From NCBI GenBank assembly GCA_038887515.1, contig JAWAKK010000001.1, positions 710,205-774,204 of the forward strand: a stretch of 64,000 nucleotides of DNA, read 5' to 3'. The notes beneath the pieces were generated by a model. It saw nothing but the letters and a program-made list of their open reading frames with translations. It did no database searches and was not told the origin of the DNA. The translations under genes were made by a program, and so were the position numbers. The DNA comes from Candidatus Nezhaarchaeales archaeon. GTDB taxonomy: Archaea > Thermoproteota > Methanomethylicia > Nezhaarchaeales > WYZ-LMO8. Position 1 is the first letter of the stretch; every line of letters begins with the position of its first letter. Shown here one piece after another: positions 12,115 through 58,805 of the stretch.

Positions 12115-12211
12115 GGGCCCGTGGCGCAGCCCGGATAGCGCGGCGACAACCGTTAAGGTTGCCGTAAGCCTCCTAAGCCGTTGGTCGTGGGTTCAAATCC
12201 CACCGGGCCCG
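12115..12211 (+). tRNA. Intron-containing tRNA-Arg (anticodon CCU or CCG depending on intron position)
   Basis: 7-bp acceptor stem GGGCCCG/CGGGCCC. D-arm GCGC-AGCCCGGATA-GCGC. T-arm GTGGG-TTCAAAT-CCCAC. 97 nt, about 22 nt too long between the D- and T-arms. Removing nt 34-55 of the gene (genomic 12148-12169) gives a canonical loop CUCCUAA (U33, A37, anticodon CCU). A canonical 37/38 intron would give CCG with U at position 37. No CCA encoded. Confidence 0.7.
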
Positions 12212-13916: not shown

Positions 13917-14378
13917 GAACCTAAACCTTAAGCTGGCCTCGCGCCTTCTCGTAAGTACCTGCCCCCAAGTAATGTTCGACTTTATGGTCTTCTACGTAAT
14001 ACTTGATATTTATAAAATGCTTTTTAATTTTTACCCTTAAAAGCCCTAATTTACATAAAAAGTATCGGTACTGATGTGCTTCCCCACATAAAACTTTATG
14101 TAACATGAAGCGAGGGGGCCCGCTTTTAGGTCGACAATGTAAAGGTTTGAATACCTACGTGCAATCGTTTCAACGCACGATTTTCAAGTAATGTAAAGAG
14201 CTTTGACGTGATGTTCATTTATTTGAAGTAAAGTTTATTGGGATCCTTCTAAAGGAGTTTTCCCTATGGGAGGGAGACAAAGGACGACGCTACTGGAGAT
14301 TTTTGAAGAGAAGAAGAGTGGAACCGAGAAAAAAGCTAAAAAGTAGAAAGCCGTGAAAAATAAAAATGCGAAGTGTAA

Positions 14379-14398
14379 GGGGGGGGGGGGGGGGGGGG
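14379..14398. repeat. G20 homopolymer tract
   Basis: Twenty consecutive G at 14379-14398, read directly. Lies 31 nt upstream of the ATG at 14429. Overlapped only by an implausible poly-Gly N-terminal extension of the track ORF. Confidence 0.95.
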
Positions 14399-14428
14399 TC
14401 AACCGGAATTAATGAAAGGAGTAAGGGA

Positions 14429-15415
14429 ATGTCTCAGAAGCACAACGCCGTGGCAGAGAAGCTCTCAGAATATTGTAGATCTAATAAAGCTATAACCTCT
14501 TTCCTACAAGAAATGGTCCTAAGAGGTATTAGCGAAATAAGACCTATCATATCGAGTAACGTAGAATACCCCGAACTTTCAGAATTCTTTGGCAAAGAAG
14601 CCAGTAAGATGCTTGAAGTGATGATTAGGGATGGCATACTTAAAGGCGTGGTCGTTGATAGGATATTGATGTGCCCCGAGTGCAACGCAATAACAGTAAG
14701 GACGCGCTACTTATGTCCTAGCTGTAAGAGCTTTAACGTTGAGCGTGTCTCGCTTATAGAGCACATAATTTGCGGCTTTATTGGATCAAACAGGCTATTC
14801 AAGAAAGGTGAAAGCGAAGTGTGTCCACGCTGTGGCCGTACCTTAAAGAGGGCTCAAGTGGACTGGAGGATCATAGGTATGACCTTTGAATGCTACGATT
14901 GCGGACTCATGTTTGATGAGCCCAAGATAGCCCACAAGTGTCTACCAAACGGTCACGAATTCGACCCAACGAATTCGAAGTACGAAGCCGTTTACAAGTA
15001 CGTGATCAAAGACGAGGTCGTGAAAATGGTACAAGAAGGCTTCCTGGTAACTTCTACCATTCATCAAGTCCTCGCATCGTCAGGATACGAAGTCCATGTC
15101 GACGGGGCCGTAAGAGGCCTTTCTGGCGTCGACCATAGATTTAACGTCGTAGGATCAAAGGACGGAAAGTTGACAGTAATCGAAACTAGCAACTTGCAAT
15201 CGGGCAGAGAGCAGTTAATGCAGATGGTCGCTAAGGTCATAGACACCAAACCTTCGCGAGCACTATTAGTAGTGCTTTCTCAAAGCGAAGAGGGTTTAAG
15301 AGAGCTTGAATCTCTTGCCTCATCGTTAAACATACGACTTATTGCGGTCAAAAACTTAATGGAAATAGGGGAAGCTATCCGGCGGATATTAAGTGAGGAA
15401 AGCGAAAAATCTTAA
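14429..15415 (+). CDS. Multi-zinc-ribbon protein, candidate regulator of the adjacent type IV pilus locus
   Basis: Start moved to ATG 14429 (GGAG about 10 nt upstream), dropping the poly-Gly extension. Three CxxC pairs (CPECN...CPSCK, CPRCG, CYDCG) follow an N-terminal helical region. C-terminal ~130 aa of unknown fold. No confident family assignment. Confidence 0.5.
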   Translation: MSQKHNAVAEKLSEYCRSNKAITSFLQEMVLRGISEIRPIISSNVEYPELSEFFGKEASKMLEVMIRDGILKGVVVDRILMCPECNAITVRTRYLCPSCKSFNVERVSLIEHIICGFIGSNRLFKKGESEVCPRCGRTLKRAQVDWRIIGMTFECYDCGLMFDEPKIAHKCLPNGHEFDPTNSKYEAVYKYVIKDEVVKMVQEGFLVTSTIHQVLASSGYEVHVDGAVRGLSGVDHRFNVVGSKDGKLTVIETSNLQSGREQLMQMVAKVIDTKPSRALLVVLSQSEEGLRELESLASSLNIRLIAVKNLMEIGEAIRRILSEESEKS

Positions 15416-15419
15416 GAAC

Positions 15420-16280
15420 CTACAGTAGCTGCGTAAAGACTAAGATCAGTACCGCCAACATCAATGCCGAGTGCCTCAACCCAGTTAACATAGACCCCTT
15501 AGATATCTTTCCTATTGCAAGCCCAGCAGCTATGGCCTCTATTACCCCGCAATAGAAAAATATGGCTTTGTAGAAATCGATGCCCCTAAATCCCTTAACT
15601 ATCTCTCCAAAACCCTCCGTAAGCGTTAGGGGGGTTACTAGCTGAGTCATCAGTATGTAGACCGTTAACAGGTACACCACAAAGCTTACGTACATGATCC
15701 AGGTGTAGGACTTGAGCTCTGTCTCCTTCTCAGTTTCGTACGATTCCAAAGCTGAGTGTAATGTGAGGAAGGATTGAAGAATGTTTAGGGCTTTAGCTCC
15801 ACTCCTCATAACCTCTACGAGTAGTATAGATACCTTATCCATGAGCGGGGTCCTAGCCATCTTAGCTATGTCAATTATCGAAATTTCAGGGTCGAACCCT
15901 AACATCATCTTGGCGACTACTCTATTCAACTCCTTTGAAAGTGGACCGTAACGGTTTTTAGCGCACTCTTTAAGGGCAATCGTCAATGGAACGCCAGTCC
16001 TCACGTAATCTACTAAGTCCCTGATGAATTGGGAGACGCCTTTCTCAATCCCTCTCTTCCATCTATGCTCAAGGTCTTCAACCACTCCAACTATAAGGCA
16101 CAAGACCAAGATCCCTACACAGAATATAGAGTTGACCAGTTGGCTAGTAGGTATGAATATTGGAGGGGCGGGAGTGTAAAGCTTCAGGTAGAATGGCAAG
16201 TAGAATATCGCCACGGCAGATGCAATGGCCACAAAGTAAGTAGCCGCCTTCTGGCGGGGAGAGAAGAAGCGCCCGTTCAT
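15420..16280 (-). CDS. Type II secretion system F-domain membrane protein (TadC/FlaJ-like, second half)
   Basis: Polytopic membrane protein with one T2SSF-like domain. Its ATG lies one codon after an in-frame TAA that ends the upstream T2SSF gene (TAA-GCC-ATG). Confidence 0.6.
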   Translation of the reverse strand: MNGRFFSPRQKAATYFVAIASAVAIFYLPFYLKLYTPAPPIFIPTSQLVNSIFCVGILVLCLIVGVVEDLEHRWKRGIEKGVSQFIRDLVDYVRTGVPLTIALKECAKNRYGPLSKELNRVVAKMMLGFDPEISIIDIAKMARTPLMDKVSILLVEVMRSGAKALNILQSFLTLHSALESYETEKETELKSYTWIMYVSFVVYLLTVYILMTQLVTPLTLTEGFGEIVKGFRGIDFYKAIFFYCGVIEAIAAGLAIGKISKGSMLTGLRHSALMLAVLILVFTQLL

Positions 16281-16283
16281 GGC

Positions 16284-17174
16284 TTACACCGACGAAAGCG
16301 CCTTGTCCATCAATACCAACACTATGGCCGCGAGTACCGGCATCAATACGAATGCTGTAAGCATAGTTACTGAGACCGGGTCAACGCCGAAGAGTTGTTG
16401 GCCGAGCATGGCCACTATGATCAGTATGGTTATGATAATTATTGGACCTACTATAACCAAGGCTACGTACATCTCGGATAGATATCCCATAGCCGTCAGG
16501 ACCTTGCGTAGAGTTGATCTCCTGAACTCTACGAGACTTTTCGCGTAGTCCATTAAGTACCCCGATACGTCTCCGCTCGAGCCTATGACGGTTGAGAGTC
16601 CTTCCAATAGTGTCTTCAAATGAATCGAGGGGGACCTATTGGCTGCTTCGTATAGGGCTTTTATGGGATCTACGTTGAATATAGCCATCTGTCTAAGTAT
16701 AAAGCAGAACGTGTTTTTAATGGCTTTCTCGCTCTCGATCTCCACGGTCCTCCTGATCAAGGTCTCGATAGTTGTTCCAGCTGAAGCCAGCGCAGCCATG
16801 TACTCCACAGTATATGGGAGGGCTCTGTCTATTCTAAAAGCCAAGTTCTTGGACCTTACATAAGGGTAGTATGCGCCTACCGTAAAAGTGACCGAGAAGC
16901 CTAGGATAGCCCATACAACTACGAGCACCAGCACATAGAGCATGGGTAGGCCCAGCACTAGGGCGTTGACTATAAAGGAAACAATGGCCGAGGCTACGCA
17001 GACCATTATGCTCATGAAGACGACTGCTGAGGCGTAAGCCGGAAATGGAATGCCCATCTGAGCCTTAAGGTACCTCTCCCTTACGAAGGAGATGAATGGA
17101 GAATTTGAGCTAGGCTTAAAGAGCCTGTAACTGAATGAGGATATGGCTTCGAGGAGACCGTTTCCCTTCGACAT
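16284..17174 (-). CDS. Type II secretion system F-domain membrane protein (TadB/FlaJ-like, first half)
   Basis: 296 aa. Cytoplasmic T2SSF-like domain (LPYTVEYMAALASAGTTIETLIRR) flanked by TM segments. Follows the ATPase gene after a 6-nt gap. Confidence 0.6.
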   Translation of the reverse strand: MSKGNGLLEAISSFSYRLFKPSSNSPFISFVRERYLKAQMGIPFPAYASAVVFMSIMVCVASAIVSFIVNALVLGLPMLYVLVLVVVWAILGFSVTFTVGAYYPYVRSKNLAFRIDRALPYTVEYMAALASAGTTIETLIRRTVEIESEKAIKNTFCFILRQMAIFNVDPIKALYEAANRSPSIHLKTLLEGLSTVIGSSGDVSGYLMDYAKSLVEFRRSTLRKVLTAMGYLSEMYVALVIVGPIIIITILIIVAMLGQQLFGVDPVSVTMLTAFVLMPVLAAIVLVLMDKALSSV

Positions 17175-17182
17175 GGCCTCAC

Positions 17183-18703
17183 CTAAGGGGTAGCTACCAA
17201 CTTTAGCAACTCACTCCTAGCCCTCTCGTAGGTTTCTCGAGGCTTTAAGTAGTAGCTTCTAATAACCTTGGCTACGTCGTCGTGCCTCGATAGGTCCTTC
17301 TTCAACATCCATTCAAGCACAACCTTCCTGTTCTCTAGTTCACTCGTAACGTTATCAAAACCTAGCCTCTTGACTATGATGCTGCCATCTGCTATCAACC
17401 TAGTGAAGGAATCGGTAAGCGGATCCCAACGATATATGGGATTTATCATGATTTCCCCGCTTCTAGGGTCTATCCCCGTGACCTCGTTTACCTCTATAAC
17501 CCTTCTAACCGTAACCCCTCTCACTTTTCTTCTAGCAACTAGTATTATGGTTTCAATCATTGGTATAAGTTCTCTAGGAACATTCATAGGCTTAGACTCG
17601 AGCCTCCTTATGGCCGCCTCTATGTTTTCAGCGTGTATGGTGCATAGACCTCCGTGGCCTGTAGCCACGGCTTGAAAGAGAGCGTAGGCTTCTTCGCCCC
17701 TGACTTCGCCGACGATTATGTAGTCGGGCCTTTGCCTTAAAGCGGACTTTAATAGGTCGAACGCCGATATCTCTGGGGCTCCATCGGTCGTGCTGGGCCT
17801 AGTAACTAAAGGGACCCAGTTCTCATGTGGGAGCATTAGCTCCCTCGTTTCCTCTATAGTTATTACCTTGGCTTCAGGCCTTATCAGGGCGGCTATAGCG
17901 TTTAGGAGAGTAGTCTTGCCGGACGCAGTTGCACCGCAAATAAGCATAGACCTCATTTGCTCGACCATAATCCATAGGTAAGCTGCTACTTCGCTCGACA
18001 AAGTACCTAACTTTATTAGGTCTATTATAGTAAACTTTTCAGGCCTATACTTCCTAATGGTAAAGGTCGACCCCCTCTTAGAGACCACGTCTAGGGTTAG
18101 GTGGACTCGATGTCCTTCAGGTAGCACGCCATCGATGACCGGCCTTGCAATGGAAACCTGCTGCTTAGCCTTAAACGACAGGGTCATGACGAAGGAGTTT
18201 AGTTCCTCCTCACTTTCAAAGGATACGTTCGTTGGAAGCTCCTCGTACTTTACGTGCCAAACGTATATTGGGATCCCGACGCCAGCGCAGCTTATATCTT
18301 CGATGTTGGGATCCCTAACTATGCCGTCTATCTTTCCGTAGCCCAGCAGGTCCCTAACTATGTAATAAAGTATCTTATCTAGGGCTTCTGAGGCCACCTT
18401 GAAGCCGTACTTCTTAATAACTTTCTTAGTTGCTTGGACTATGAAGGACCTCGCCTTTTCCGGGTCTTCTACGTCCTCTACGTCTACGTCAACCGACTCC
18501 TTGATGAACTCCTTGACCCTACGTACTACCTCCACCTCGTCCTGTAGAAGCGTTGGCTCTACGACTTCGTACCTAAGCTTCCCGACGGGATCCATTACTA
18601 TAGCTATGTGGCAGAAGGGGGGATTCACGGCGTAGAAGTCTCTTAAACGAGCTAGCTCAACTTGTTCTAAGCCCTTAGAGTCTCCAGCCCGCTTAATACT
18701 CAT
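17183..18703 (-). CDS. Type IV pilus/archaellum-family secretion ATPase (FlaI/CpaF/VirB11 superfamily)
   Basis: Walker A GATASGKTT, Asp/His boxes and typical length of 506 aa. Confidence 0.85.
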   Translation of the reverse strand: MSIKRAGDSKGLEQVELARLRDFYAVNPPFCHIAIVMDPVGKLRYEVVEPTLLQDEVEVVRRVKEFIKESVDVDVEDVEDPEKARSFIVQATKKVIKKYGFKVASEALDKILYYIVRDLLGYGKIDGIVRDPNIEDISCAGVGIPIYVWHVKYEELPTNVSFESEEELNSFVMTLSFKAKQQVSIARPVIDGVLPEGHRVHLTLDVVSKRGSTFTIRKYRPEKFTIIDLIKLGTLSSEVAAYLWIMVEQMRSMLICGATASGKTTLLNAIAALIRPEAKVITIEETRELMLPHENWVPLVTRPSTTDGAPEISAFDLLKSALRQRPDYIIVGEVRGEEAYALFQAVATGHGGLCTIHAENIEAAIRRLESKPMNVPRELIPMIETIILVARRKVRGVTVRRVIEVNEVTGIDPRSGEIMINPIYRWDPLTDSFTRLIADGSIIVKRLGFDNVTSELENRKVVLEWMLKKDLSRHDDVAKVIRSYYLKPRETYERARSELLKLVATP

Positions 18704-18794
18704 CCTAAAGCGCCTAGAAAAATCTAGAAGGCGAAGCTCAAAACTTTTCCGGAGCGAGTAAAGCCTAGCAGACGAGTTCTTTTAACGATAGATT

Positions 18795-18808
18795 TATTTA
18801 AATGGTAT
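18795..18808 (+). promoter_or_regulatory. Putative BRE/TATA element for the pilin gene
   Basis: TTTATTTAAAT about 30-40 nt upstream of ATG 18837, in the divergent intergenic region between the ATPase operon and the pilin genes. Confidence 0.3.
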
Positions 18809-18836
18809 CGCAAATTATTATCGTTCGGTGAACACC

Positions 18837-19265
18837 ATGAAGAAGGTTAAAGGGGTCTCCCCCATAGTAGCAGTACTATTACTCATAGTCATAGCTGTAG
18901 CGGCAGCTGCAATGACGTATGGCTTCGTAATGGGCTTCATAGGTGGAGCCGCAACAACTACAACAACGACGCAAGCAATGATAAGGGTAGAAGCAGTAGA
19001 TGCCACTACTGGTACTGATGCCACAGTATACGTTAGGAACATAGGCTCCATCCCTGTAACTGTCGACTTCATATATGTGTACCACGCTAATGGAACCCTC
19101 ATGAGTACACAACGGCTTTCGACTTCGATCACGATTCCTCCGGGTAATGTAGGTATAGTTTATGTCGATGGCCTAGATTTAAGTGGAGGGGTTACGTACT
19201 ACGTCAAGGTAACGACCAAGGAAGGAGCTATCGCGACATCGGAGCCCTTTAAAGTTAAAAGCTAG
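18837..19265 (+). CDS. Archaeal type IV pilin (class III signal peptide, DUF361-like N-terminus) with one beta-domain
   Basis: N-terminus MKKVKGVSPIVAVLLLIVIAVAAA matches the K-G-(V/I)SP-hydrophobic class III pattern. C-terminal ~90-aa domain is homologous to the repeats of the next gene. Start set to ATG 18837 rather than the track's GTG 18828. Confidence 0.7.
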   Translation: MKKVKGVSPIVAVLLLIVIAVAAAAMTYGFVMGFIGGAATTTTTTQAMIRVEAVDATTGTDATVYVRNIGSIPVTVDFIYVYHANGTLMSTQRLSTSITIPPGNVGIVYVDGLDLSGGVTYYVKVTTKEGAIATSEPFKVKS

Positions 19266-19411
19266 CCCGTAGTAGTGTGAGTAATACTATACGCAGTTAC
19301 TATAGTGTTTCGGGTCTAGCTTTTTTAACATACAATCAATTTTTCCTCCTTGTTATGTTTACCACAATAGTTATACCTAAAGCTGTTATAAAGAAGGATT
19401 TAGCGACGCCT

Positions 19412-20707
19412 ATGAGTGGAGGCAAGGGGATCTCTCCGATAGCTTCTACGCTATTGCTAATAATGGTTGTAGTTGCTGCTACGGTAACCACGTACAACTT
19501 AGTTATTGGACTTGTAGGAGTAACCGCTACATCGCCTCTACGATCTGTAATAAGGGTGGACGAAGTTAGCATCTCTGGTAGCGAGCTTACTGTTTACGTC
19601 AGGAACCTTGGTCCGGCTCCAATGACGCTAGATTCGGTATACGTGTACTCTGTTGACGGGGTACTAGTCGGGCGCGTTCATATTAACCCCAAAACGATAG
19701 ATGCGGGAGAGGTTGAGGCTATTACGGGCATACCAATTGGTTACTTGAAGGAGGGGGGTGTCTACTACATCAAGGTAGCTACAATGGAGGGAGCTATCGC
19801 GTCTTCCCAAGCATTTAAAGTCGGATTAGCTAAATCAGCTAAAGCTATAATAGTGATAGAAAGATTGGAGACCGAGCCAGCTACATTGAACACATTCAAT
19901 GCTACACTGTACGTCAAGAATGCGGGCGACGTCCCAGTGACGATAGACGAAGTACGCGTATACTACTCGTTATCGAAGAAGACTTTACTGGAAAGCATTG
20001 ACATTGCAAAGAGATTAAATCCTGGAGAGACTGTGAGGATCGTTATTGACAAAATACCATACGACATAGAGCGGCAGAGGCCTAGCTACGAGATTGAAGT
20101 AACAACTATAGAAGGAGTTATAGCAACTACGAAGGCTATGGTACTAGCAAGAGAAATGTTGGTAGAAACAGGATTAAGTGCGGAAGGATTCAACATAGAC
20201 GCCTCCATATACGTTATAAATTATGGCGCTGCCCCAGCAATAATAGATAAAGTACAAGTATACATCGATGGAGAGTTGGACAGTATCGTAAACCTTGGGA
20301 ACTTGTCGCTAGGTGTGACGAGTTCAACAACCATTAATTTCAACGTTACTATAGATCCAAGCAAGTCCTACTCCTTCAAGATTGTAGGAAGTGATGAGGC
20401 TTTAACGTCGTGGCGAGCAATAGTGGTAGCTGAAGCGAGTGCAACACCGATAAACGATCGCAGTTACAGCGTTACTGTTTACGTTAGGAACGTCGGCTCC
20501 ACCCCCGTAACGATTTACGGCTTGTACATACAATCTGAACGAGGGGACTTAATAGTGCCCCTGATAGATGTAGGGGAGGTGATAAAGCCAAAAGAGATTA
20601 AAGAGATAATTAATCCAATTACCCTAACGAATGGGACATACTACATATTCGTGTTTACTGATGAGCCTTGGTTTTTAGAAGCGAAGACGAGGCTAGAATT
20701 GGTATGA
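19412..20707 (+). CDS. Modular type IV pilin/adhesin with class III signal peptide and four tandem beta-domain repeats
   Basis: Internal ATG 19412 gives MSGGKGISPIASTLLLIMVVVAA, a class III signal. Four ~90-aa repeats share an xxYVRNxGxxPVTID-like core (TVYVRNLGPAPMTLD, TLYVKNAGDVPVTID, SIYVINYGAAPAIID, TVYVRNVGSTPVTIY). The 45-aa extension in the track ORF is probably not translated. Confidence 0.65.
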   Translation: MSGGKGISPIASTLLLIMVVVAATVTTYNLVIGLVGVTATSPLRSVIRVDEVSISGSELTVYVRNLGPAPMTLDSVYVYSVDGVLVGRVHINPKTIDAGEVEAITGIPIGYLKEGGVYYIKVATMEGAIASSQAFKVGLAKSAKAIIVIERLETEPATLNTFNATLYVKNAGDVPVTIDEVRVYYSLSKKTLLESIDIAKRLNPGETVRIVIDKIPYDIERQRPSYEIEVTTIEGVIATTKAMVLAREMLVETGLSAEGFNIDASIYVINYGAAPAIIDKVQVYIDGELDSIVNLGNLSLGVTSSTTINFNVTIDPSKSYSFKIVGSDEALTSWRAIVVAEASATPINDRSYSVTVYVRNVGSTPVTIYGLYIQSERGDLIVPLIDVGEVIKPKEIKEIINPITLTNGTYYIFVFTDEPWFLEAKTRLELV

Positions 20708-20826
20708 TTAAGATAGCGGTCGAGGATAGAACGTTGAAGGGAGAAACTATTATTACCATAAACTCTCGTCTGAAGGCTTAATATGGTATCTGGGGTCTCG
20801 AGCGATATCCACCCGATTCCTTGCCC

Positions 20827-21417
20827 TTATTTAACTCTCTCGCGTTGCTTCTTCTTCCACTTGTAGTTGTGGGTCCCTCTTAGGCCCCTCGACTTCCTCA
20901 GGCCCCTCATCTTCTTTCCGGCTGAAGTTAATCCTCTGAACGCCCTTCCCCTGTTGGCTGGACTGCAAATCCAGTTTATGTCTGGGTCGTTTTGTACTGC
21001 TGGGTGGTGGGGGTCGACCATTATCACTTCGTACCACTTGTAGCGCCCATCCTCGCCGACGTAGTAGCTGTTGAGGACTTCTAAGTTCGGGAACTTCCTA
21101 GCCGCCCTCTCCTCAGCTATTAGCCTTAAGCTCTTCCAGGTTGCGTAGCCGTAGACCCCCATCCTCTTGGGTCTCCTACCAGAGTCCGGTCTCGGCTTCC
21201 TCTGTCCTCCCTTCCTTACCCTGACCCTTACAACTACGAATCCCTGCTTGGCTTTGTAGCCTAGAGCTCTAGCCCTGTTTAGCCTAGTGGGCTTCTCGAC
21301 TCTAACTACTGTTGGCTCTCTCCTCCATTCTATGAGGCGTTGCCTCATTATCTCCTTTATTTCTCCGCGATAAGGCTTCTTCCAGAGCTCTGCTATGTAG
21401 TGGTACACGGACTTCAA
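20827..21417 (-). CDS. rpl15e: 50S ribosomal protein L15e
   Basis: Strong L15e similarity ([21 protein letters not shown]). TTG start bounded by an upstream stop. Confidence 0.9.
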
Positions 21418-21526
21418 CTCCTACACCTCTCGGTGGTAAGGTTATGAGCTCACTTAAATGTTTTCGCTTAAATCTTGGACGGTGAGTTAATTTTCCTCCG
21501 ACTAAAATAACTTTTTGAGAGGTATA

Positions 21527-22636
21527 ATGTTCGAAGCCTTTCTACTGAGACCGGACGCTCATAGAGTTTGGAATAACCGTGAGGTTAAGAGGAGACTTAG
21601 CTGGTACTACGGGGTTATAGTTGACGAGAAACCATCAAAGTACAGAATATGTAAGAGGGTCGGTGTAGACGTCGACCTGTCTGCCGACGACGAGGAGCTT
21701 TGGAAGATGCATAGAGAAGGCTCCGCGAGGTTCGTTAATGTTTGGAGGAGAATAGCTTCTAGCGAGCTAAAGCTTGAGGATCTTGAGGAACCGGATGTAA
21801 GCCTGTTAGACGTTAAGATTGAGCTCGTTAAGAGGATGTTGAGGTCCTGCACATTTTGCGAGAGGAGATGTAAAGTCGACAGAGAGAAGGGCGAAGTAGG
21901 TTTTTGTAGGCTAGACGCTAAAGCTAGGGTTTCAAGCTTCTTCCACCACTACGGTGAAGAGGCACCTCTAGTGCCGAGCGGTACAATATTCTTTACAAGC
22001 TGTAGCTTCAAGTGCGTCTATTGCCAGAACTGGGACATATCGACAGATCCACACAACGGAGTTGAAGTGACCGCAAGGCAGCTCGCCTCCATAGCTACCA
22101 AGCTTAGGAGAGAAGGTTGCAGAAACGTAAATTACGTAGGCGGGAACCCAGATCAGTCCATGCACGTAATCGTCGAGTCCCTGAGGTACATGGACGTTAA
22201 TGTGCCAATACTTTGGAATAGCAATGCCTATGCCAGCTTAGAGGCCATGGAGATATTGAAGGACCTTGTCGACATATGGCTACCGGACTTCAAGTACGGT
22301 AACGACAGGTGTGCTGAGAGACTTTCTATGGTTCCCAAGTACTTTGAAGTCGTTACTAGGAACCTGAAGATAATGCACGAGAGTGGAGACATGATAGTTA
22401 GGCACCTAGTCCTTCCAAACCATGTAGAGTGCTGTACCAAGCAGGTGCTAGAGTGGTTAGCTAGAAACTGTCCTAGGTGCCTAGTTAACATAATGGAGCA
22501 GTATAGGCCGGAGCATGAGGTTGCTAGAAGACCGCAGTTGTACCCGGACATTAGTAGGAGGCCCACGGCGGGCGAGATGAATAGGGCTTATAGCATAGCT
22601 AAGGAGCTTGGGATAGTGTGGGAGCCTGTATCTTAA
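21527..22636 (+). CDS. Radical SAM protein, PflX-like (COG1313 family)
   Basis: CSFKCVYCQN radical-SAM Cx3Cx2C motif. N-terminal Cys-rich extension (CTFCERRC) typical of PflX-like proteins. ATG 21527 preferred over TTG 21515. Confidence 0.65.
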   Translation: MFEAFLLRPDAHRVWNNREVKRRLSWYYGVIVDEKPSKYRICKRVGVDVDLSADDEELWKMHREGSARFVNVWRRIASSELKLEDLEEPDVSLLDVKIELVKRMLRSCTFCERRCKVDREKGEVGFCRLDAKARVSSFFHHYGEEAPLVPSGTIFFTSCSFKCVYCQNWDISTDPHNGVEVTARQLASIATKLRREGCRNVNYVGGNPDQSMHVIVESLRYMDVNVPILWNSNAYASLEAMEILKDLVDIWLPDFKYGNDRCAERLSMVPKYFEVVTRNLKIMHESGDMIVRHLVLPNHVECCTKQVLEWLARNCPRCLVNIMEQYRPEHEVARRPQLYPDISRRPTAGEMNRAYSIAKELGIVWEPVS

Positions 22637-22651
22637 CGTGGAGCCTTAACT

Positions 22652-23200
22652 TCAACTCCTTAGGGCTGAGGAGATCCTTTGAACTATCAAGTTCGTTAAC
22701 GAATCCCTATTCGATAGCGTAAGCTCTATAACTTCGAAATCCCTTCCGCTCCTTATGTAGTCTAGGAGCGGGTGCCTAAGCTTATAGTGGAGCGTCGCTA
22801 GTAGAGGCTTCTCAGAATCTAAAGCTCTCTCGACCGCTTCAATGAACCTCTGGGACTTGAGCTCCATGGGTCCTATCTCGTCTACGACTAACAAGTCGCA
22901 TTTTTCTAAAGCTCTCGATATAGAGTTAACGGCGAAGGAGTCCAAGTTCTCTACGTGTACCAGGTACTTACCAACCCTAGGCCCTGAAGCCGAGCTTACT
23001 GATGCCAGTTGGGCTTCGGCCCCGCTTTCAACGTCAACGATCTTGAAGCCCGTTCTAACCCCCCTACTTCTAACTTCAAGCGTTACTATTCCGCCAACCT
23101 TAAATTTCATGCTTTTTAGCTTTTCAACCACTTTAAATACCAGTGTGGTCTTACCTACCCCGGGTCTACCAGTCACAAATATCTTGTTCTTCAGGGCCAT
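22652..23200 (-). CDS. Nucleoside-triphosphatase THEP1 family
   Basis: FVTGRPGVGKTT Walker A. ~180 aa. THEP1/COG1618 architecture. Confidence 0.75.
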   Translation of the reverse strand: MALKNKIFVTGRPGVGKTTLVFKVVEKLKSMKFKVGGIVTLEVRSRGVRTGFKIVDVESGAEAQLASVSSASGPRVGKYLVHVENLDSFAVNSISRALEKCDLLVVDEIGPMELKSQRFIEAVERALDSEKPLLATLHYKLRHPLLDYIRSGRDFEVIELTLSNRDSLTNLIVQRISSALRS

Positions 23201-23268
23201 CCTAACTACATCTTGAAGGCTTAATAATTAAGTGTTACTTAGGTATTTTTATCTACTTGAAGCTTCTT

Positions 23269-24018
23269 ATGGAACCTGACGTTGATATTGCATGTTTGGA
23301 GTTAAGGGCCAGCCTAACGAACAGCGAAGCGATAATAATGGTTGGAGGCTGCGAAGTCGAATATAGTGGGCGCGCAAGCTCAACGTTGACTAGGGGTGAA
23401 AAATAGTCGTAGTAAAGCAAGATGGCTCTGTTCTAGTCCATGGACCTGAAGGTTACGAGCCCGTTAACTGGCAACCGCCCGGCTGTCTATTTAAGGTGGC
23501 TAGCCTAAGTGGACTACTAAAGATCGTTGCTACGAGGCCTAGCCCTCGCGAGGTTTTGACGATATCGTTCCATAAGATCCATATGATGGCCTGTAGGAAG
23601 CTACATGACGCAGGAGCATTCTCTATGTATGTGAGCGAGGACGAGATGAAGGAGGCTATAAGGCTTAACCCATCGTTAATCGAGGAGGGGGCTTAAAATC
23701 TTGACCTCAGAGAAGGGTCTCGGAGAAGCTGGCTACGCAGGTTTTGTAGGCGAGGATTCTAAAGGAAACTTCGTAGTGATAGAAGTCAAGAGAGGAACTA
23801 CGGGAGAAGAAGTCATACAGCTCGCTAGGTACGTTAACGAAGCTAAACAGAGGGTTAATAGATCCGTTAGGGGAATACTCGTCGCCTCCCCATTGAAGAA
23901 GAAGGGGCAACTACTCTTAGAACGATTTAAGCTCGACTTCAAGGCGTTAACGCCTGAGAATTGTAGGAAGTTCTTAAAGAAAGCTTCAGGTACGAGCCTA
24001 CTTGAGTTCATGGAGTGA
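23269..24018 (+). pseudogene. nucS: NucS/EndoMS mismatch endonuclease gene interrupted by two frameshifts
   Basis: Three consecutive frame segments read as one NucS. Segment 1 (23269-23409): MEPDVDIACLELRASLTNSEAIIMVGGCEVEYSGRASSTLTRGEK. Segment 2 (23403-23696): KIVVVKQDGSVLVHGPEGYEPVNWQPPG. Segment 3 (23680-24018): GYAGFVGEDSKGNFVVIEVKRG, the PD-(D/E)xK nuclease core. Frame shifts occur at an A5 run (23402-23406) and at a G5/A4 run (23687-23698). Confidence 0.7.
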
Positions 24019-25540
24019 GCGAGATTAGCTTCAAAACTGCGCTGTTCATCTCTTCAGTAAAGATCGTCGGGTACAAGCCCAGGAACAGCGATATGATAGC
24101 CATGACTATTAGCGGAGCGAGGAAACTTAATGAGGCCTCTTTAACTCCATTAAGTTGCGGTGGGGTTTGTCCGAAAAGTATTCTCCTTATGGGCCAAAGC
24201 GCGTAAGCGAATGTTAAGACTGTTGCCACTATGGCCACTACGACTATAAATATCTTAAACGACTCGGAGGCTAGAGAGGCAGAACCTATAGCGCTCGTAA
24301 ATATCATCCATTCACTTATGAAGCCGCTAGTGAAGGGTACTCCCATTAGTGTGAAGAAGCCTATAAACATAGTTACAGCAGTGTAAGGCATTTTACCCGC
24401 TAGCCCTCCCATCTGGCTTATGCTCCTCGTACCGACTTGGAGCGTAAATACGCCGACTAAGAGGAACAATATCGCTTTGCCCATGGCGTGGGCTACGTAA
24501 TGAAACATGGAGCCCGTGGCGCCTATAATGGCTAAGTTCTCGGCTTTCATGCTTATTGCTAAGGCCGCAGCTCCAAGGCCTAGCAATATGTAGCCCATCT
24601 GGCTTATGCTCGAGTAGGCTAGCAACCTCTTAAGGTCCTCTTGACTTAAAGCGTTGGCAGCTCCGTATATCATAGTTATAGTGGCTAGGACTATCATCGC
24701 CGTAGAGACGTATTGCAAGGCAGGCGTGTAGAGGAAAACTATCCTAACTATGGCGTAGGCCGCCAAACCGCTCATAGCTGACGAGAGCAGAGCCGTTATC
24801 GGTGTAGGGGCTTCGACGTAGGTGTCTGGAAGCCAGCTGTGAAGTGGGAAGATCGCCATCTTCACGAAGAAGCCTATGAGCATCGCCGAAACGATTGCCG
24901 TTAGGACCTCAACGCTAGGGTTAAGTTGCGCTATCTTTAATGGAATTTCATATATCTCAAGAGTATGAAGGTAGCCGTTGGTCGCAACTATCCCTGCTAG
25001 GAAGCAAAGCGCTCCAGCTTCGGTGAACAAGAAGTACTTTAAAGCGACCTTCTCCTTCTCGCCGGTGCCCCACTCGTTTATTAGGGCCCAAGAGGCTACG
25101 ACCGCGATTTCGAAGAATACGAAGAACTCTACTAGGTTTGTGGAGAGAGCTAGCCCTATCATTCCTAGGAAGAATAGCTGGTAGAGACTGAAGAAGATGC
25201 CCATGTTTGGCGAGTCCTTCATGAGTTTTATCGTGTATAGAGCAGTTAGAGCCGCGACTATTGCTACCGTCAAAGCTATTGGCGAGCTTAGGCCGTCAGC
25301 CTTGAAACCAAACCTCAACGCTATGCTGTCCGTTATAACCCAATCGTACACCTTCTCATAGGATGAAGCTACGCCCGTAAAGATCTTATACGTCGAAATT
25401 CCGAAAATTCCTATCGAAAATAATGAGAGTAAGAAGGATATAAGGCCATTCCACCTGCCTAAGAGCTTGTTGAGCCCTAAGATTATTAGCGACGCTATCG
25501 CAGGTAATATTACGGTGTAAGGAAGAAGTTCTTCTATCAT
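24008..25540 (-). CDS. nuoN: NADH-quinone oxidoreductase antiporter-like subunit (NuoN-like)
   Basis: 510-aa polytopic membrane protein of the Mrp-antiporter/NuoLMN family. Last gene of the nuo cluster. Assignment of N versus M is by position only. Confidence 0.75.
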   Translation of the reverse strand: MIEELLPYTVILPAIASLIILGLNKLLGRWNGLISFLLSLFSIGIFGISTYKIFTGVASSYEKVYDWVITDSIALRFGFKADGLSSPIALTVAIVAALTALYTIKLMKDSPNMGIFFSLYQLFFLGMIGLALSTNLVEFFVFFEIAVVASWALINEWGTGEKEKVALKYFLFTEAGALCFLAGIVATNGYLHTLEIYEIPLKIAQLNPSVEVLTAIVSAMLIGFFVKMAIFPLHSWLPDTYVEAPTPITALLSSAMSGLAAYAIVRIVFLYTPALQYVSTAMIVLATITMIYGAANALSQEDLKRLLAYSSISQMGYILLGLGAAALAISMKAENLAIIGATGSMFHYVAHAMGKAILFLLVGVFTLQVGTRSISQMGGLAGKMPYTAVTMFIGFFTLMGVPFTSGFISEWMIFTSAIGSASLASESFKIFIVVVAIVATVLTFAYALWPIRRILFGQTPPQLNGVKEASLSFLAPLIVMAIISLFLGLYPTIFTEEMNSAVLKLISLTP

Positions 25541-27586
25541 CTACCACAACCCCCCTAGCTTAAGCAACATTAATGCTATTATTATGAGTCCTATCAACAT
25601 GCCTACGATGTTGTAGTTGAGGAAACCTGTCTGCAACCTCCTAAACCTGGAGGCAAAGCCTACAACGCTCGATGCAAAGCCGGTTACTGCTCGATAGAAC
25701 CCCTTGACTTCAATCCAGTTGTAGAGGCCCCGAGACGCTGAAATTAGAGGGTACACAAAAGCGTTGTAGTACATTTTATTTATGAACCACCTCTTGAAGA
25801 AGAACGTATGGAGTGCACGTAGCACCAGACTCTTAGACACTATAGCTGAAGGATTTACCCTCTTACTTATGTACATGAAGTACGCTGGGACTGCGCCTAT
25901 AATGAGCATGGCTATCGCTATTGGTAACGTTATGAACTGGGGACTTACCGCCTCGGCTTCTACATGCATCGCTAGCGAATGTAATACCGAGTATGGAGCC
26001 ATGCTTGAGAAAGCATGGTGAAGAGATTCTTCTACCCACAATCCAACAATCCCTATGCCGAGGGAGGATATAGCCAGTATTGCGTAGGGCACGTACATTA
26101 TCGGGCTTGCCTCCTCGATCTTATGCCCTTCAGCCTCGAGCTCTATAATCCTATGACTTTTCTCTCCATGGAACGTAAGCCCCATCATTCTAACAGTGTA
26201 AAAGGCCGTTAGCGCCGCTGTTACTATTGCTAATACGAATGGGCCTACTAGACCCGCCTCCCAGCTTACAGTTAAGACGGCTTCTTTACTCCAGAAACCG
26301 CTGAATGGTGGTACTCCTGCTAGCGATAGGGCGGCAAGCCAAGTTGCTACATACGTTATAGGCATATACTTTCGGAGGCCACCCATGTGGTACATAAACC
26401 TAGACTCGACAGCGTGTATTATAGCTCCAGCCGCGAGGAATAGAGCTGCTTTAAAGATTGCGTGGCTCATTAAGTGAAACATTCCTGAAGTTAACCCTTC
26501 AACTACTCCGTGCGCTAATAGGCCCCCAGCCCCCAGCGCTAAGAACATGTAACCTATTTGGCTAATGGTTGAATAGGCCAACACCTTCTTTATCTCCCTT
26601 GAAACCATTGCTTGTGTCGCAGCGAGGAAGGCTGTAAAGGCACCTATCCACGCAATCGTAGTGAAGAAGGTCGATAGTTCCGATATACCTAGTACGTGAT
26701 AGGCAAACCAGAATATAGGGAGGACTCTTGCTACTAGGTACACTCCAGCCTTAACCATGGTAGCAGCATGTATAAGGGCGCTAACGGATGTTGGACCAGC
26801 CATAGCGTCGGGAAGCCATTCGTGAAGCGGAAACTGAGCCGACTTTCCCACCGGGCCCATGAAGAATAGGATTGCCGCCGGAAGTAGAAGCCCAGCGCTT
26901 CTTAACGCCGGAGCCCACTGATCAACCTTATGTAGGAGCTCTGAGTAGCTGAAGGTTCCTGCAAATGCATAGATCATGAATATCGAGGCTAGCAAGCATA
27001 TGTCACCAATTCTGGTGGTTATGAAGGCTTTCATACCTGCATGTGATGGTGGATAGGCCTCATCGCCTTCCCCAACCCAACACTTCAACCAGTCATCCTT
27101 CGAGTCCCTATACCAAAAACCTATGAGAGCGTAGCTGCAGATGCCTACGCCCTCCCAGCCAAAGAACATAAGGAGCAAGTTGTCGGACATCACCAAGAGG
27201 AGCATACTACCGATGAAGAAGTTCATAAAGAACCAATACCTAGTAAGGCCCGGTTCTCCGTGCATGTACTTCAAGGAGTAGATCATTATCAGAAAGCTGA
27301 TCCAGGCGACTACGTTGGCCATTATTATGCTTAAGGGGTCTACTACGACGCCCATATCGATTCTTAGCGACGGTATCCAGCTAAAGCTCTCAGAGTTAAA
27401 TAGCGGAGGGGGTTCCTTGAACAATAGTGGTATCATGGTCGAGGCGGATACGGCTGCGAATAGCGAAAATAGAACGGCAACGTAATCCCTAACGCGCGAA
27501 TTAATTTTTGCGAATAGTGGAGTTAAAGTGGCGCCAACCATTGGCAGGATCCAGCAAAGCCAAGCGCCGACGTATTTAGGCAACAA
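25541..27586 (-). CDS. nuoL: NADH-quinone oxidoreductase subunit L (NuoL-like)
   Basis: 681 aa, the longest antiporter-like subunit, with a C-terminal extension. TTG start bounded by an upstream stop. Confidence 0.8.
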   Translation of the reverse strand: MLPKYVGAWLCWILPMVGATLTPLFAKINSRVRDYVAVLFSLFAAVSASTMIPLLFKEPPPLFNSESFSWIPSLRIDMGVVVDPLSIIMANVVAWISFLIMIYSLKYMHGEPGLTRYWFFMNFFIGSMLLLVMSDNLLLMFFGWEGVGICSYALIGFWYRDSKDDWLKCWVGEGDEAYPPSHAGMKAFITTRIGDICLLASIFMIYAFAGTFSYSELLHKVDQWAPALRSAGLLLPAAILFFMGPVGKSAQFPLHEWLPDAMAGPTSVSALIHAATMVKAGVYLVARVLPIFWFAYHVLGISELSTFFTTIAWIGAFTAFLAATQAMVSREIKKVLAYSTISQIGYMFLALGAGGLLAHGVVEGLTSGMFHLMSHAIFKAALFLAAGAIIHAVESRFMYHMGGLRKYMPITYVATWLAALSLAGVPPFSGFWSKEAVLTVSWEAGLVGPFVLAIVTAALTAFYTVRMMGLTFHGEKSHRIIELEAEGHKIEEASPIMYVPYAILAISSLGIGIVGLWVEESLHHAFSSMAPYSVLHSLAMHVEAEAVSPQFITLPIAIAMLIIGAVPAYFMYISKRVNPSAIVSKSLVLRALHTFFFKRWFINKMYYNAFVYPLISASRGLYNWIEVKGFYRAVTGFASSVVGFASRFRRLQTGFLNYNIVGMLIGLIIIALMLLKLGGLW

Positions 27587-43837: not shown

Positions 43838-46447
43838 TCACTTACTATTGCAGAAAAACGAAGTTATACTTCTAACTCCAAGGATCTCGTCGAAGTCTAA
43901 ACCTAGAGCCGTAAGTACTTGCTCGAAAGTAGTCCTCATATGTTCCACGTACTTCTCTACGTCTACTTCATCTATCCTAGCCAACTGGATAGGTTTAACG
44001 CCAGGTTCTCCCTTAACCTTTACGAACCTTATTATCGAGCCTGCGTCCACGTTCTTCTTGTAAGCCATTAAGAGTTTGGCAGCCTTCACATGTTGGGAAG
44101 ATACGGCATAATCTGACGGATGTTTTGATAGCATGACGGTAAAGGCCAGCTCGTCTAAGCTATACTTCCTCTCTCTCAGTTTCTCGTAGACCTTTCGAGC
44201 CAAGTCCCTAATAACCTCCTTCGATCTTTCGAAATCTTCAGGGGTCCTTACTCTGCTCAATATGCTTACAAAGTTTAAGAAGGCCTCCTTTAAGAATGGG
44301 GGCGTGTTCCTCTTCTTTCCTACAAGACCTTTAATATCCACTTCGCCGTTGACTAGCGTGCCTACGTAGTTCTTCTTTAAGCCTGAGAAGGCAACGAACT
44401 TGTAGTTCTTGTCGTAGTCTAGGTCGACTTTAAGTACCTCCTCGGCCCACTCCATGAGTTCCTTGATCTTCGATTCGTCGGGGTTATGTATGAAAATACT
44501 GTCCGTATCGCCATATACGACCTCAAGCCCTAGGCTTTGAGCTTTTTCAATGGTCTTAGTTATTATGTATCTGCCTATCGCTGTTGTACTCTCAGCAACT
44601 GGCGGGCAATATAGAGAGAAGTTTGAGGATCCCATCACACCGTAGGAGGCATTCAATATGACCTTTAAGCTCTTCTCTACAACCTCGTAGAGACTCTTTT
44701 TAGCCGGATCCTTTACTTTCTTCGACATAGGCTTAAACCACAGAGCCCTTATGTCCCGCAACATCCCTATCAATATCGATGTTAAGCCCTGTCTCTTAGT
44801 GCAGACCCAGTGAGGCGTTGAAGGTATCACGTTAGACCTACATTCTTGGTGGTTACAGTTTATAACTTCGTAGGATAGGTTCCTCGTTTTAACTATGCTT
44901 GGATACAGTGATGTGAAGTCGAGGACCGCTACATTGAAATATACCCCAGCGGGTGGCTTCAGCACTATTGCTCCCATGTACTTCTTGCCTTTAATCTTAG
45001 CTTCAGTTGCCGCCTGACCCTTAACGGCTATTATCTCGTCCTTCCTAGGTATCAAGAAGTTCCTCTTGCGATGCTCAAAGTATAGCATGTTCCTTATCCA
45101 GTTGGATATGCCCTGCCTCGTTACGTCCTCCATGCTCATCTTGGATATGCGCATGAAAAGCACTATGAGCTTCATTATGAGGTTATCGTTGAACTTAGTA
45201 AATTGAAGAGTTATGTATGCGTCCCTTAAACAGTAAGCTGCTAGCTGAGCATAACTTAACTGCGATACTGAAACTCTAAGTTGAATCTTCTTGACTGATA
45301 GAAGAGCTTCGGCTACTGCATCTAAAGTCACGTCTCTGTACTTATTACCGAAAGCATAACCTTGAATCGACCTGTTGTGGAAGAACTTGTAGAGGTCTAC
45401 GTGAACCGATGCCGGTAGCAGAGCAGAGGGGTTTTCGCCTGCAGTCATTGATATAGGCACTTTATCTCGAGGGAAGCCAAGCTTAATGGCTCTGTGAAGA
45501 ATGTAATTTAAGTCGAAGTTATCTCCATTAAAAGTTAGCACTATCGGGTAATCGTTTAAAAGCTTGAATATCTCCTCCAACATCTTGTACTCATCGTAGA
45601 AGAACCTTACTTCAGCATCTTCAGGAAGTTCCTCCGACTGACCAGCTTCCACGCCGTCCCTCCTCAATAAGAAAACTAGCTTCCTTCCATCAGAGTCTAC
45701 AAGGCTGAAGGCTATTATTGGGTATAGTGCCTCCTTAGGGTTTGGAAGCTTATCTGGGTCTGGAGAGTAAACCTCTATGTCTATCGCTGCCCTCCTTATG
45801 TCCGGTATAGGAGCTAGGAATAAGGGGAGCCATTCTTTGACAACTTCTTTGGCCGCTTCTTGACCTTCAAAAAGCTTCATAACGTCTTCGGTTTCATCCC
45901 CACCAAACTTTGCATCAGTTTTGAGTAGCTTTCCATCCTCAATTCTATAGAACATGCCTGGCACGAGCTGCTTATCGAAAATGTAGCAGTTATGATACTT
46001 TATATCGGCCTCCCAAGCTTTAGGTAGAAGGTCCCTTATAGCCCCCTTCTTACCGCCTATAGCGAGAGGATCTGACGCCATTACTTTTATCAGCTCGACC
46101 TCCTTCTCCCTCAGGACGTCAAATTTCCTAACTTTCTCGAAGCCAATAAATCCTGGGTGGGCTACAACCTTGCTTCTCTTAAGCTCCTCAATGCTCATAT
46201 CCGTTAAACAGTAGGGCTTGTGTCCGGAATCGTCGTACCAAAAGTGCATAACTCTCTTTTCAATATCGTAGAGCTTAAGGAGGGCTTTCTTAGTCTCGCC
46301 ACTATATGATACAGACAAGAGGATGCATGTACCTGAGCTTCGAGAGGGCTTGAGGTCTATCTTTCCCGTGATGTAAAGTTCTTCTTCGTGTTCGGTTTCA
46401 AGTACCTCTTCAGTCTCTAGGTATTCTTCAAGTAGTTCGCTCACCAT
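43838..46447 (-). CDS. polB: Family B DNA polymerase
   Basis: Exo I motif IDIEVYS. Pol motifs including YGDTDSIF and KxxxNSxYG. 869 aa. Confidence 0.9.
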   Translation of the reverse strand: MVSELLEEYLETEEVLETEHEEELYITGKIDLKPSRSSGTCILLSVSYSGETKKALLKLYDIEKRVMHFWYDDSGHKPYCLTDMSIEELKRSKVVAHPGFIGFEKVRKFDVLREKEVELIKVMASDPLAIGGKKGAIRDLLPKAWEADIKYHNCYIFDKQLVPGMFYRIEDGKLLKTDAKFGGDETEDVMKLFEGQEAAKEVVKEWLPLFLAPIPDIRRAAIDIEVYSPDPDKLPNPKEALYPIIAFSLVDSDGRKLVFLLRRDGVEAGQSEELPEDAEVRFFYDEYKMLEEIFKLLNDYPIVLTFNGDNFDLNYILHRAIKLGFPRDKVPISMTAGENPSALLPASVHVDLYKFFHNRSIQGYAFGNKYRDVTLDAVAEALLSVKKIQLRVSVSQLSYAQLAAYCLRDAYITLQFTKFNDNLIMKLIVLFMRISKMSMEDVTRQGISNWIRNMLYFEHRKRNFLIPRKDEIIAVKGQAATEAKIKGKKYMGAIVLKPPAGVYFNVAVLDFTSLYPSIVKTRNLSYEVINCNHQECRSNVIPSTPHWVCTKRQGLTSILIGMLRDIRALWFKPMSKKVKDPAKKSLYEVVEKSLKVILNASYGVMGSSNFSLYCPPVAESTTAIGRYIITKTIEKAQSLGLEVVYGDTDSIFIHNPDESKIKELMEWAEEVLKVDLDYDKNYKFVAFSGLKKNYVGTLVNGEVDIKGLVGKKRNTPPFLKEAFLNFVSILSRVRTPEDFERSKEVIRDLARKVYEKLRERKYSLDELAFTVMLSKHPSDYAVSSQHVKAAKLLMAYKKNVDAGSIIRFVKVKGEPGVKPIQLARIDEVDVEKYVEHMRTTFEQVLTALGLDFDEILGVRSITSFFCNSK

Positions 46448-47784: not shown

Positions 47785-47873
47785 GGGCCCGTCGTCTAGT
47801 TTGGATAGGACGCCAGCCTGCGGTTCACGTAGAAAGCTGGAGGTCCGGGGTTCAAGTCCCCGCGGGCCCGCCA
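47785..47873 (+). tRNA. tRNA-Arg (anticodon GCG) with an ~11-nt intron at the canonical 37/38 position and genomically encoded CCA
   Basis: Acceptor stem GGGCCCG/CGGGCCC. D-arm GTCT/GGAC. Anticodon stem CCAGC/GCTGG perfectly paired. Loop CUGCGG followed by insert TTCACGTAGAA then A38. A 4-bp helix TGCG/CGTA flanked by 3-nt bulges resembles a BHB-like motif. T-arm CGGGG-TTCAAGT-CCCCG. 3' end ...G-CCA is encoded. Confidence 0.75.
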
Positions 47874-48270
47874 TCTTTCTAAATAATTAACCTGGCCCTC
47901 CTTTCTTAGGAACCACCGCACGTGAGGTCATTGAAGTTCGCGGGTAGCAAATCTTAAGTAGTAATAGAACGAAACAGTTGTGGTGATGTCTAGCTCGGAG
48001 GGCCAAGGCTCGAGCTGCCTTCACGATAAACTGGAACTATTAGGGGAGCAGAGAGGGGAGAAAGGAGTAAATAAGTACTTTAGATGTTTAAGGTGCGGAA
48101 ACGTCTTGATATTATCGGAGAACGGAGCATTGTACGAGGTGCCTTCAGCTAAGAAGAGTTAAACTACTGGCAAATTGACTTGGCCCCTATCTTCCCTTAC
48201 ACTGTAGGGCAAGTTTAGCAGGACTTCAATAACGAAGGTCGACAAGTTAAAAATAGTCGAAAGTCTCGAG

Positions 48271-50223: not shown

Positions 50224-50420
50224 TCTAGTTCACGCTAGTGTAAAGAGGGGCTGCAATATAGGTGTTAGGGCCTTGGTAAGTTTCGTAAAGGAGAACAGCT
50301 CGATTAAAAGTTGCTCGTCCAAGACTAACATTTAAAGTCGGTCCACGAGTATACATAGCCCTTGGAGTCTGCTTACCTACAATTACGTAACTTCAGCGTT
50401 CCGACGTCGCTCGCAGGATC

Positions 50421-51953: not shown

Positions 51954-52204
51954 AAAACGTCAGATAAAAGGATAGTAATAGCGAATACTTGAAACTTATC
52001 CATAGCATCTAGAGACGCTAAATGCGGTTTAGCAATATGCTAAGAATTAAAGGTTGATAGACAATTCAATACCGATGAGATTTTGGACCACTTACATCCT
52101 AAAAGTGTATTATTTCGCAATTTTATGTCACAATTTATATAATCTGTACTAAAAAATATTTAAATTTCGTAAATTTTCGTGTTAACAACGAGGATGTAAG
52201 AAGA

Positions 52205-55423: not shown

Positions 55424-55843
55424 CCAAATATGATAATTTCATTTTTACTACGAGAAGGAATTTTTAAAATACATTTTTAAGTTTGTAAAATCTTCTAAAA
55501 AGTTCTGTCAAAAACAAGATGAAGTAAAAGCAGGATATACTCCAGTATTTAATAAATATTGGAGTTTTAGAATTAGACGAATGTTGAGGCGTTTACCTAA
55601 ATCTCCTTTAAGTTCGCAAGGACTTACCGTTTTATAACTTATAATTATTTATTACCTTATAGCTATGCTACTGATGTACCATTACCTGATAGTCAAGTTC
55701 CAGTGGTTGAGATCACTTTGGATGAGCCCTCATGATATTAAATTATAGCTTTAATTGTTGAATTAAGAATGCTGGCTAATCATCAACGTACTCGCCTATT
55801 TTACGAATACTAATACTTAAGCTTACTTTGATTAAAAGCAAGG

Positions 55844-55877
55844 TAAGATATAAGTAGTGTTAAGATATAAGTAGTGT
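55844..55877. repeat. Perfect 17-nt tandem duplication (TAAGATATAAGTAGTGT x2)
   Basis: Read directly. Two adjacent identical 17-mers in the AT-rich intergenic region upstream of the disrupted GT2 gene. Confidence 0.85.
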
Positions 55878-55894
55878 AAGGATGCAACTGTTAA

Positions 55895-57039: not shown

Positions 57040-57447
57040 TTATAATGATAGGCTTTACAACCATAAAGTAACTTATGGACCACTTTATTAATCGCATGTT
57101 TTCTCTGAAGTACTTCACCAAGAACGTTGAGATTTAAGGTCTAAGCATGCGGTTCGCCCATAAAGATCGGAAGAAGCCGAGAATAAATGCCAGTCCAAGC
57201 CTTTACCATCTTGGCTCATCTACTCTCCGGTAAAGGTCTTGTAACTAAAATCGAAAGGAACAAGTTTAGAAGTTTAGCCTATACTAATAAGCCAAAGATA
57301 TTTACGCTCTTCTTCTGAAGATTACCTCCTTCGTCGGCTTGACGTAAACAATTTCCAGACACCATACGTGATAAGCCTTATTACTTGTTTCCGATAACTT
57401 TTTTGGACGAATAGTCATTGAAGTTAAGCTCGGAGGTCGTTATTTAA

Positions 57448-58689: not shown

Positions 58690-58805
58690 GATCATTGTTT
58701 ATTAATTTATTAAGAGGGATTTTGAAAGATGGCTTTTTATCAACTACATTCTTAGTTTTTGATGGGATTCTCTAGAGGTTAATAGAATTGGTAATGTTCT
58801 AGAGA

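Follow-up and report, generated by a model that had tools for sequence, protein, structure and literature searches.

Is a nucS/endoMS gene that lies broken across reading frames in an uncultured archaeon a true casualty of gene decay, or has it been broken only in the assembly? In most Thermoproteota no mismatch-repair system other than NucS/EndoMS is known. The gene lies in a 64-kb stretch of DNA (the window) that was taken from a 776,437-bp contig of a hot-spring MAG listed at NCBI as "Candidatus Nezhaarchaeales archaeon" (locus tags QW701_). Our analyses indicate that it is, with high probability, a pseudogene, the relic without function of what was a single-copy, syntenic nucS/endoMS gene in a Nezhaarchaeales archaeon (WYZ-LMO8 family).

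The nucS locus and its reading frames

The whole nucS pseudogene spans positions 23251-24018 on the forward strand, between a divergent NTPase gene upstream (22652-23200, reverse strand) and a convergent nuo/Mrp-type antiporter-subunit gene downstream (24008-25540, reverse strand). According to the ORF list, the 807 bp between the flanking genes hold no long ORF and form the largest such gap in the window. Three-frame translation revealed three collinear coding pieces on the forward strand. Segment 1 (23257-23406) contains the N-terminal 49 codons with the first part of the NucS_N domain; it may start at TTG 23257 or ATG 23269, is coding to 23403, and is closed by a premature TAG (23404-23406). 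Segment 2 (23400-23696), in the -1 frame, carries the remainder of NucS_N, then the linker and the beginning of NucS_C (KIVVVKQDG...LIEEGA), is coding to 23693, and ends in a TAA (23694-23696). Segment 3 (23692-24018, stop TGA 24016-24018) regains the frame of segment 1 and encodes the RecB-like nuclease core and the C-terminal tail; its overlap of 11 nt with the convergent nuo gene is the same in the relatives.

The first break is a 1-nt deletion at an A5 run (23399-23403, forward strand), and the second a 1-nt insertion at a G5 run (23687-23691, forward strand). An A6 run gives back the reading ...GEKIVVV..., as an earlier note on this DNA had proposed, and a G4 run gives back ...LIEEGLKILTSEK...; adding one A and removing one G joins the pieces into a protein of 249-253 aa. 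All NucS motifs quoted in that note (CEVEYSGRASSTL, KQDGSVLVH, PVNWQPPG, and FVVIEVKRG) were recovered by translation, and its coordinates for the G5 run and the A4 run (23695-23698) were correct. It had placed the A5 run at 23402-23406, which is 3 nt off, as 23404-23406 is the TAG stop. It also described three successive frames; the pieces in fact follow the order a, a-1, a, so that two frames are used and the two indels cancel each other.

Both fragments are listed by NCBI as ordinary products: the 49-aa piece (23257-23406) as a hypothetical protein (MEM4576590.1), and the ORF at 23701-24018 (105 aa) as 'endonuclease NucS' (MEM4576592.1). Since the latter bears the family name, repair-gene surveys would wrongly score the genome as NucS-positive.

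Family identity and comparison with relatives

The frame-repaired protein matched the Pfam profiles NucS_N (PF21003, PH-like; E = 1.6e-20, profile positions 4-96 of 100) and NucS_C (PF01939, RecB-like; E = 6.3e-17, profile positions 1-113 of 124). Single pieces were sufficient for a match, with values of 2.9e-12 for segment 2 against NucS_N and 1.5e-12 for segment 3 against NucS_C. Alignments with T. kodakarensis EndoMS (5gke, E = 4.9e-39) and P. abyssi NucS (2vld, E = 1.4e-33) extended over about 217-223 residues and were gap-free at the junctions. The family match of the repaired protein is far above chance. The two reference enzymes and the window gene have a two-domain architecture in common, an N-terminal PH-like dimerisation/DNA-binding domain followed by a C-terminal RecB-like nuclease. 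The window copy keeps the catalytic E-x-K as well as the mismatch-binding Arg and Trp; the 5gke alignment places the equivalents of Tko R44 and W77 in YSGRASS and PVNWQPPG, respectively. Compared with 5gke and 2vld, the window copy differs by its two frame breaks, by Gly in place of the catalytic Asp, by the loss of the start codon, and by one missing codon. Pfam, the structure alignments and tblastn agree on a NucS/EndoMS gene with two homopolymer-associated frameshifts, the reading first put forward in the earlier note.

The two closest relatives encode intact NucS proteins of 254-256 aa with an ATG start. One is a 2.1-kb Logan contig (P0001, run SRR32459162; 79% identity) and the other belongs to MAG JAWBUB01 (P0002, genome L016, Nezhaarchaeales WYZ-LMO8 sp004347965; 75% identity). 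More distant homologs from Nezhaarchaeota/Thermoprotei (59-66% identity) are intact as well, and intact homologs measure about 254-260 aa overall. The comparison with the nucS genes of relatives that the earlier note had called for showed that the ORF is continuous in all of them (59-79% identity) and that only the window copy is broken. A C-terminal SLLEFME tail is common to the window copy and the closest relatives; it is a candidate counterpart of the PCNA-interacting tail of the family (the PIP motif QKTLF in Tko).

The order NTPase, nucS, convergent nuo/Mrp-like antiporter subunits is the same in the window, L016, and L017, and by synteny the nucS genes of the closest relatives are orthologous to that of the window. 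L016 is syntenic with the window across about 20 genes. In tblastn its NucS yielded three HSPs in the window (frames 1, 3, and 1), and each of its 19 syntenic neighbour proteins (19/19) yielded one full-length HSP.

Lesions beyond the frameshifts

A working nucS should be one unbroken ORF of about 250 aa that begins at a start codon, whereas the window copy has premature TAG and TAA stops and a mutated start. The ancestral start position (23251-23253, forward strand) now reads ATC, and the DNA alignment shows ATG there in L017 and L016; an in-frame TTG (23257) and an in-frame ATG (23269) lie downstream of the lost ATG. The catalytic motif D...E-x-K is incomplete. At the position of the catalytic Asp (Tko D165) the window codon is GGT (23740-23742, forward strand), giving D162G; relatives have GAT/GAC, the two closest among them, and Asp is found in 120/120 homologs. 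The E-x-K part (23782-23790, forward strand) is kept in the alignment, with Glu encoded by GAA (23782-23784) and Lys by AAG (23788-23790).

Further conserved sites were changed, all on the forward strand. These were R63G in the 253-aa numbering (GGA, 23442-23444; Arg in 118/120 homologs), P211S (TCC, 23887-23889; Pro in 120/120), and R49K (invariant in 120/120). An in-frame 3-nt deletion near 23804 (23798-23810) is seen as RGTTG-EEV against RE(A/V)AGEEEV of the two closest relatives, and the same region contains A182T, where 116/120 homologs have Ala. No nonsense substitutions were seen within the segments by three-frame translation.

In the T. kodakarensis enzyme D165A, E179A and K181A each abolish mismatch cleavage (PMC4838380). 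Because D165A alone does so, any read-through product of the window gene would be expected to be nuclease-dead. Because of the two frameshifts, the premature stops and the change of ATG to ATC, the window gene is, as read from its sequence, a putative pseudogene derived from the NucS/EndoMS family and not a functional member of it.

Sequencing error, functional fragments or recoding

The earlier note had left open whether the frameshifts are real or artefactual; the Logan contigs, the intact neighbours and the further lesions now favour real decay. An intact nucS in the organism, with both indels introduced at homopolymers by faulty sequencing or assembly, is very improbable. The two shifts fall exactly on the only two homopolymers of at least 5 bases in nucS, which are classic error sites, and their indels cancel each other. 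A third homopolymer frameshift is found in the window, at the A6 run at 56088 of a GT2-like gene, and the species is known from a single run. Exact-protein look-ups with the NTPase, L15e, UDP-glucose dehydrogenase, and the NucS fragments returned run SRR21619495 only, and the NucS fragment clusters were singletons; the species has been seen in one sample only. Scans of JGI metagenomes and GTDB genomes for other strains or an intact allele gave only relatives of at most 75% identity.

Against an error, Logan contigs from run SRR21619495 were identical to the window (100% identity, zero gaps) over 23.8 kb, both shifts included; these contigs were assembled independently, possibly from the same reads as the MAG. 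The first contig (12,352 bp, window positions 14425-26776) covers nucS, and the second (11,434 bp) corresponds to positions 47840-59273. The window contains 198 homopolymers of at least 5 bases, and 149 of these lie in unbroken ORFs; all 19 syntenic neighbours are intact. The chance that two of the three homopolymer frameshifts in the window would hit the two nucS sites is about 2.6e-4. Such clustering in nucS is the pattern expected of lesions that build up after inactivation. Moreover, an error would leave unexplained the loss of the catalytic Asp, the substitutions at other invariant sites, the mutated start codon, and the 3-nt deletion, which are types of lesion that homopolymer errors cannot make. 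For a related Tengchong MAG collection, reads came from an Illumina HiSeq 4000 and SPAdes was the assembler (PMC11094006). The window MAG may belong to this collection and hence may derive from Illumina reads; given that link, indel errors at 5-mers should be rare in the HiSeq consensus.

In a Pfam scan about 40 further ORFs gave no sign of truncation; matched ORFs covered essentially the full length of their profiles, and the few domain matches that were partial lay away from ORF edges. A gene ending at 63916 had been considered as N-terminally truncated on its Pfam match, and was rejected as it runs off the window end instead.

Real lesions could also have left fragments that are expressed with residual or new function, for instance a lone N-terminal dimerisation/DNA-binding piece or a nuclease-dead, PCNA-binding C-terminal piece. 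The AT-rich, promoter-like region upstream is conserved with the relatives, but it also serves the divergent NTPase gene. The gene callers of NCBI and Logan predict ORFs of 49 aa and 105 aa; however, the break at codon 49 splits NucS_N in mid-domain, the 105-aa ORF requires a TTG start and is without the first ~30 profile positions of NucS_C, and no fragment holds a complete domain. The equivalents of Tko R44 and W77 and the C-terminal LLEFME tail are kept and nonsense substitutions are absent from the segments, as function would predict, yet no homolog that is split alike was found in 5.8 billion protein clusters, in which the fragments form singletons. We consider functional fragments unlikely, and strongly so.

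Programmed recoding, in which ribosomes would slip by -1 at GAA-AAA-TAG and by +1 at GGG-G and so make full-length NucS at a regulated low level, is the least credible explanation and strongly disfavoured: perfect P-site tRNA re-pairing is possible at both sites (as it is for any homopolymer indel) and at site 1 the A site is occupied by a stop codon, but the shifts are not conserved and the ORF is continuous in every relative, site 1 (T-GAA-AAA-TAG) lacks an X-XXY-YYZ heptamer and allows a single-tRNA slip only, the 70 nt downstream fold no better than shuffled sequences (z = +1.1 and +1.0), two independent low-efficiency events would both be required, and the product would be without the catalytic Asp.

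Origin and timing of the decay

For the pseudogene, the alignment gives an order of events. At site 1 the closest relatives read GAG AGG ATC/GTC and lack an A-run, where the window has GAA AAA (A)TA. The run is therefore lineage-specific, having arisen in the window lineage through substitutions that include the codon change of R49K. In a first step, GAG-AGG-AT(C) became GAA-AAA-ATA by substitution, which formed an A6 run. In a second step, replication slippage, of which both indels are typical, probably dropped one A from this run and likewise added one G to the G4 run at site 2. The deletion of the A places a TAG after codon 49, and the insertion of the G regains the frame 290 nt later, just ahead of a TAA in the shifted frame. 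Short indels are not corrected by NucS (reviewed in PMC8228993), so that the nucS indels are uninformative as to whether loss of NucS preceded them.

Relative-rate comparisons of the NucS amino-acid sequences revealed an excess of changes in the window copy, with 28 unique changes vs. 14 in P0001 (p = 0.03) and, with a true outgroup, 26 vs. 13 in P0002 (p = 0.04). Changes were balanced between P0001 and P0002, and also in the adjacent nuo protein (17 vs. 16 and 30 vs. 29). At the codon level the ratio of non-synonymous to synonymous changes in nucS was 0.75-0.9 on the window branch vs. 0.4-0.75 on the sister branches, a difference that was not significant (Fisher p = 0.1-0.5). Codon-level evidence for relaxed selection on nucS is weak, being in the expected direction and not significant.

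An intact radical-SAM gene beside the NTPase gene (21515-22636, forward strand) showed 45-48 non-synonymous changes vs. 18-19 in L016 when outgroups L020 and L021 were used, and synonymous counts were similar. This excess is an unexplained, lineage-specific acceleration of the protein. As this neighbour has a similar non-synonymous excess, the rate evidence is not specific to nucS.

Synonymous changes outnumber non-synonymous ones on the nucS branch and there are no nonsense substitutions, for which reason we infer that the gene was inactivated comparatively recently, when set against the roughly 20% by which its protein differs from that of the nearest known relative. Most of the window branch would then have evolved under constraint.

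Consequences of the probable loss of NucS

The organism is probably without NucS-dependent mismatch repair, unless a further copy of the gene is present elsewhere in its genome. Neither MutS/MutL nor a second NucS locus was found within the 64-kb window. That we are dealing with a natural NucS-null population, with no second nucS and no MutS/MutL, is conceivable, though we would sooner doubt it than assume it. If true, a wild lineage would be living without any known post-replicative mismatch repair, and a time series from Tengchong hot springs could test whether its substitution rate has risen or NucS is dispensable.

The earlier note had raised the prospect of a mutator phenotype. We found no signature of one: branch lengths of neighbouring genes and their transition/transversion ratios equalled those of sister lineages. 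With outgroups L020 and L002, synonymous changes in nuo numbered 57 vs. 66 and 64 vs. 64, and transition/transversion ratios of the neighbour genes showed no difference between branches. An apparent mutator signal, a 1.5x synonymous excess on the window branch in three-taxon parsimony with L016 as outgroup, was discarded; L016 does not make a clean outgroup, which had produced the excess, and it was gone with the true outgroups L020 and L002.

Known loss-of-function alleles of nucS include the gene deletions in S. islandicus and S. acidocaldarius and missense variants in M. tuberculosis, and in the lineages of these alleles NucS is the predominant mismatch-repair pathway (PMC8228993, PMC7736090). 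Deletion of endoMS in S. islandicus increased the mutation rate about 1100-fold, and deletion of nucS in S. acidocaldarius did not raise it (PMC7736090, PMC8228993). Mutation rates have been measured for those alleles, which are either knock-outs made in the laboratory or missense polymorphisms, whereas the window allele is natural, multiply lesioned, and located in an uncultured archaeon. Our literature search for a NucS pseudogene returned nothing relevant. As a natural null allele from an uncultured lineage of putative methanogens, the window copy is a small data point suggesting that NucS can be lost in the wild.

The decay of nucS is otherwise ordinary gene decay in a well-known family. 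Of its roughly 63 genes the window has about 2 that are broken, a share that would fall within the usual pseudogene fraction of prokaryotes. Twenty kb from nucS lies a gene for a family-B DNA polymerase (43838-46447, reverse strand; 869 aa) that is intact and includes the exonuclease domain; as judged from this gene, replicative proofreading is not visibly affected.

Other features of the window

The second broken gene encodes a GT2-like glycosyltransferase (55895-57039, forward strand). Its N-terminal ~66 aa (KTAILVPTYCG...) and the remainder (ORF 56161-57039) are read in different frames, and one A added to the A6 run at 56088-56093 joins the two. A homolog search decided the case: homologs of 363-377 aa share 50-55% identity with the joined protein and cover 97% of it. 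The separate pieces gave no Pfam match, and the joined N-terminal part matched GT2 weakly. The conserved N-terminal motif has no ATG, GTG or TTG ahead of it. In the NCBI record the C-terminal piece alone is annotated (292 aa, hypothetical, QW701_04085), and a Logan contig (L071) is identical to the window at the frameshift.

The GT2-like gene lies in a cluster of low GC content (52000-59000; 38.7% vs. 45% for the window) with sugar-nucleotide and glycosyltransferase genes: NTP-transferase, epimerase/dehydratase, UDP-glucose dehydrogenase, the broken GT2-like gene, and GT4. The cluster resembles a variable glycosylation island.

A run of 20 G residues (14379-14398) was observed inside the 5' end of the ORF at 14366-15415 (TackOD1 domain). 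It marks the left edge of a block of about 6.4 kb (14366-20707) encoding the TackOD1 protein, two T2SSF proteins, a T2SSE ATPase, an archaeal pilin, and a CARDB protein; the block is absent from L016 between the phosphoribosyltransferase and L15e genes. The Logan contig starts shortly after the G run, at 14425, so that its agreement with the window does not extend to the junction at the run. This junction may mark the boundary of an insertion or a join made during assembly.

Two tRNA genes on the forward strand are longer than usual. One (12115-12211) received no assignment from ARAGORN, which read the anticodon loop as 'cgtt', and was not reported by Rfam at the gathering threshold; the other (47785-47873) is tRNA-Ala. 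Both genes probably carry introns.
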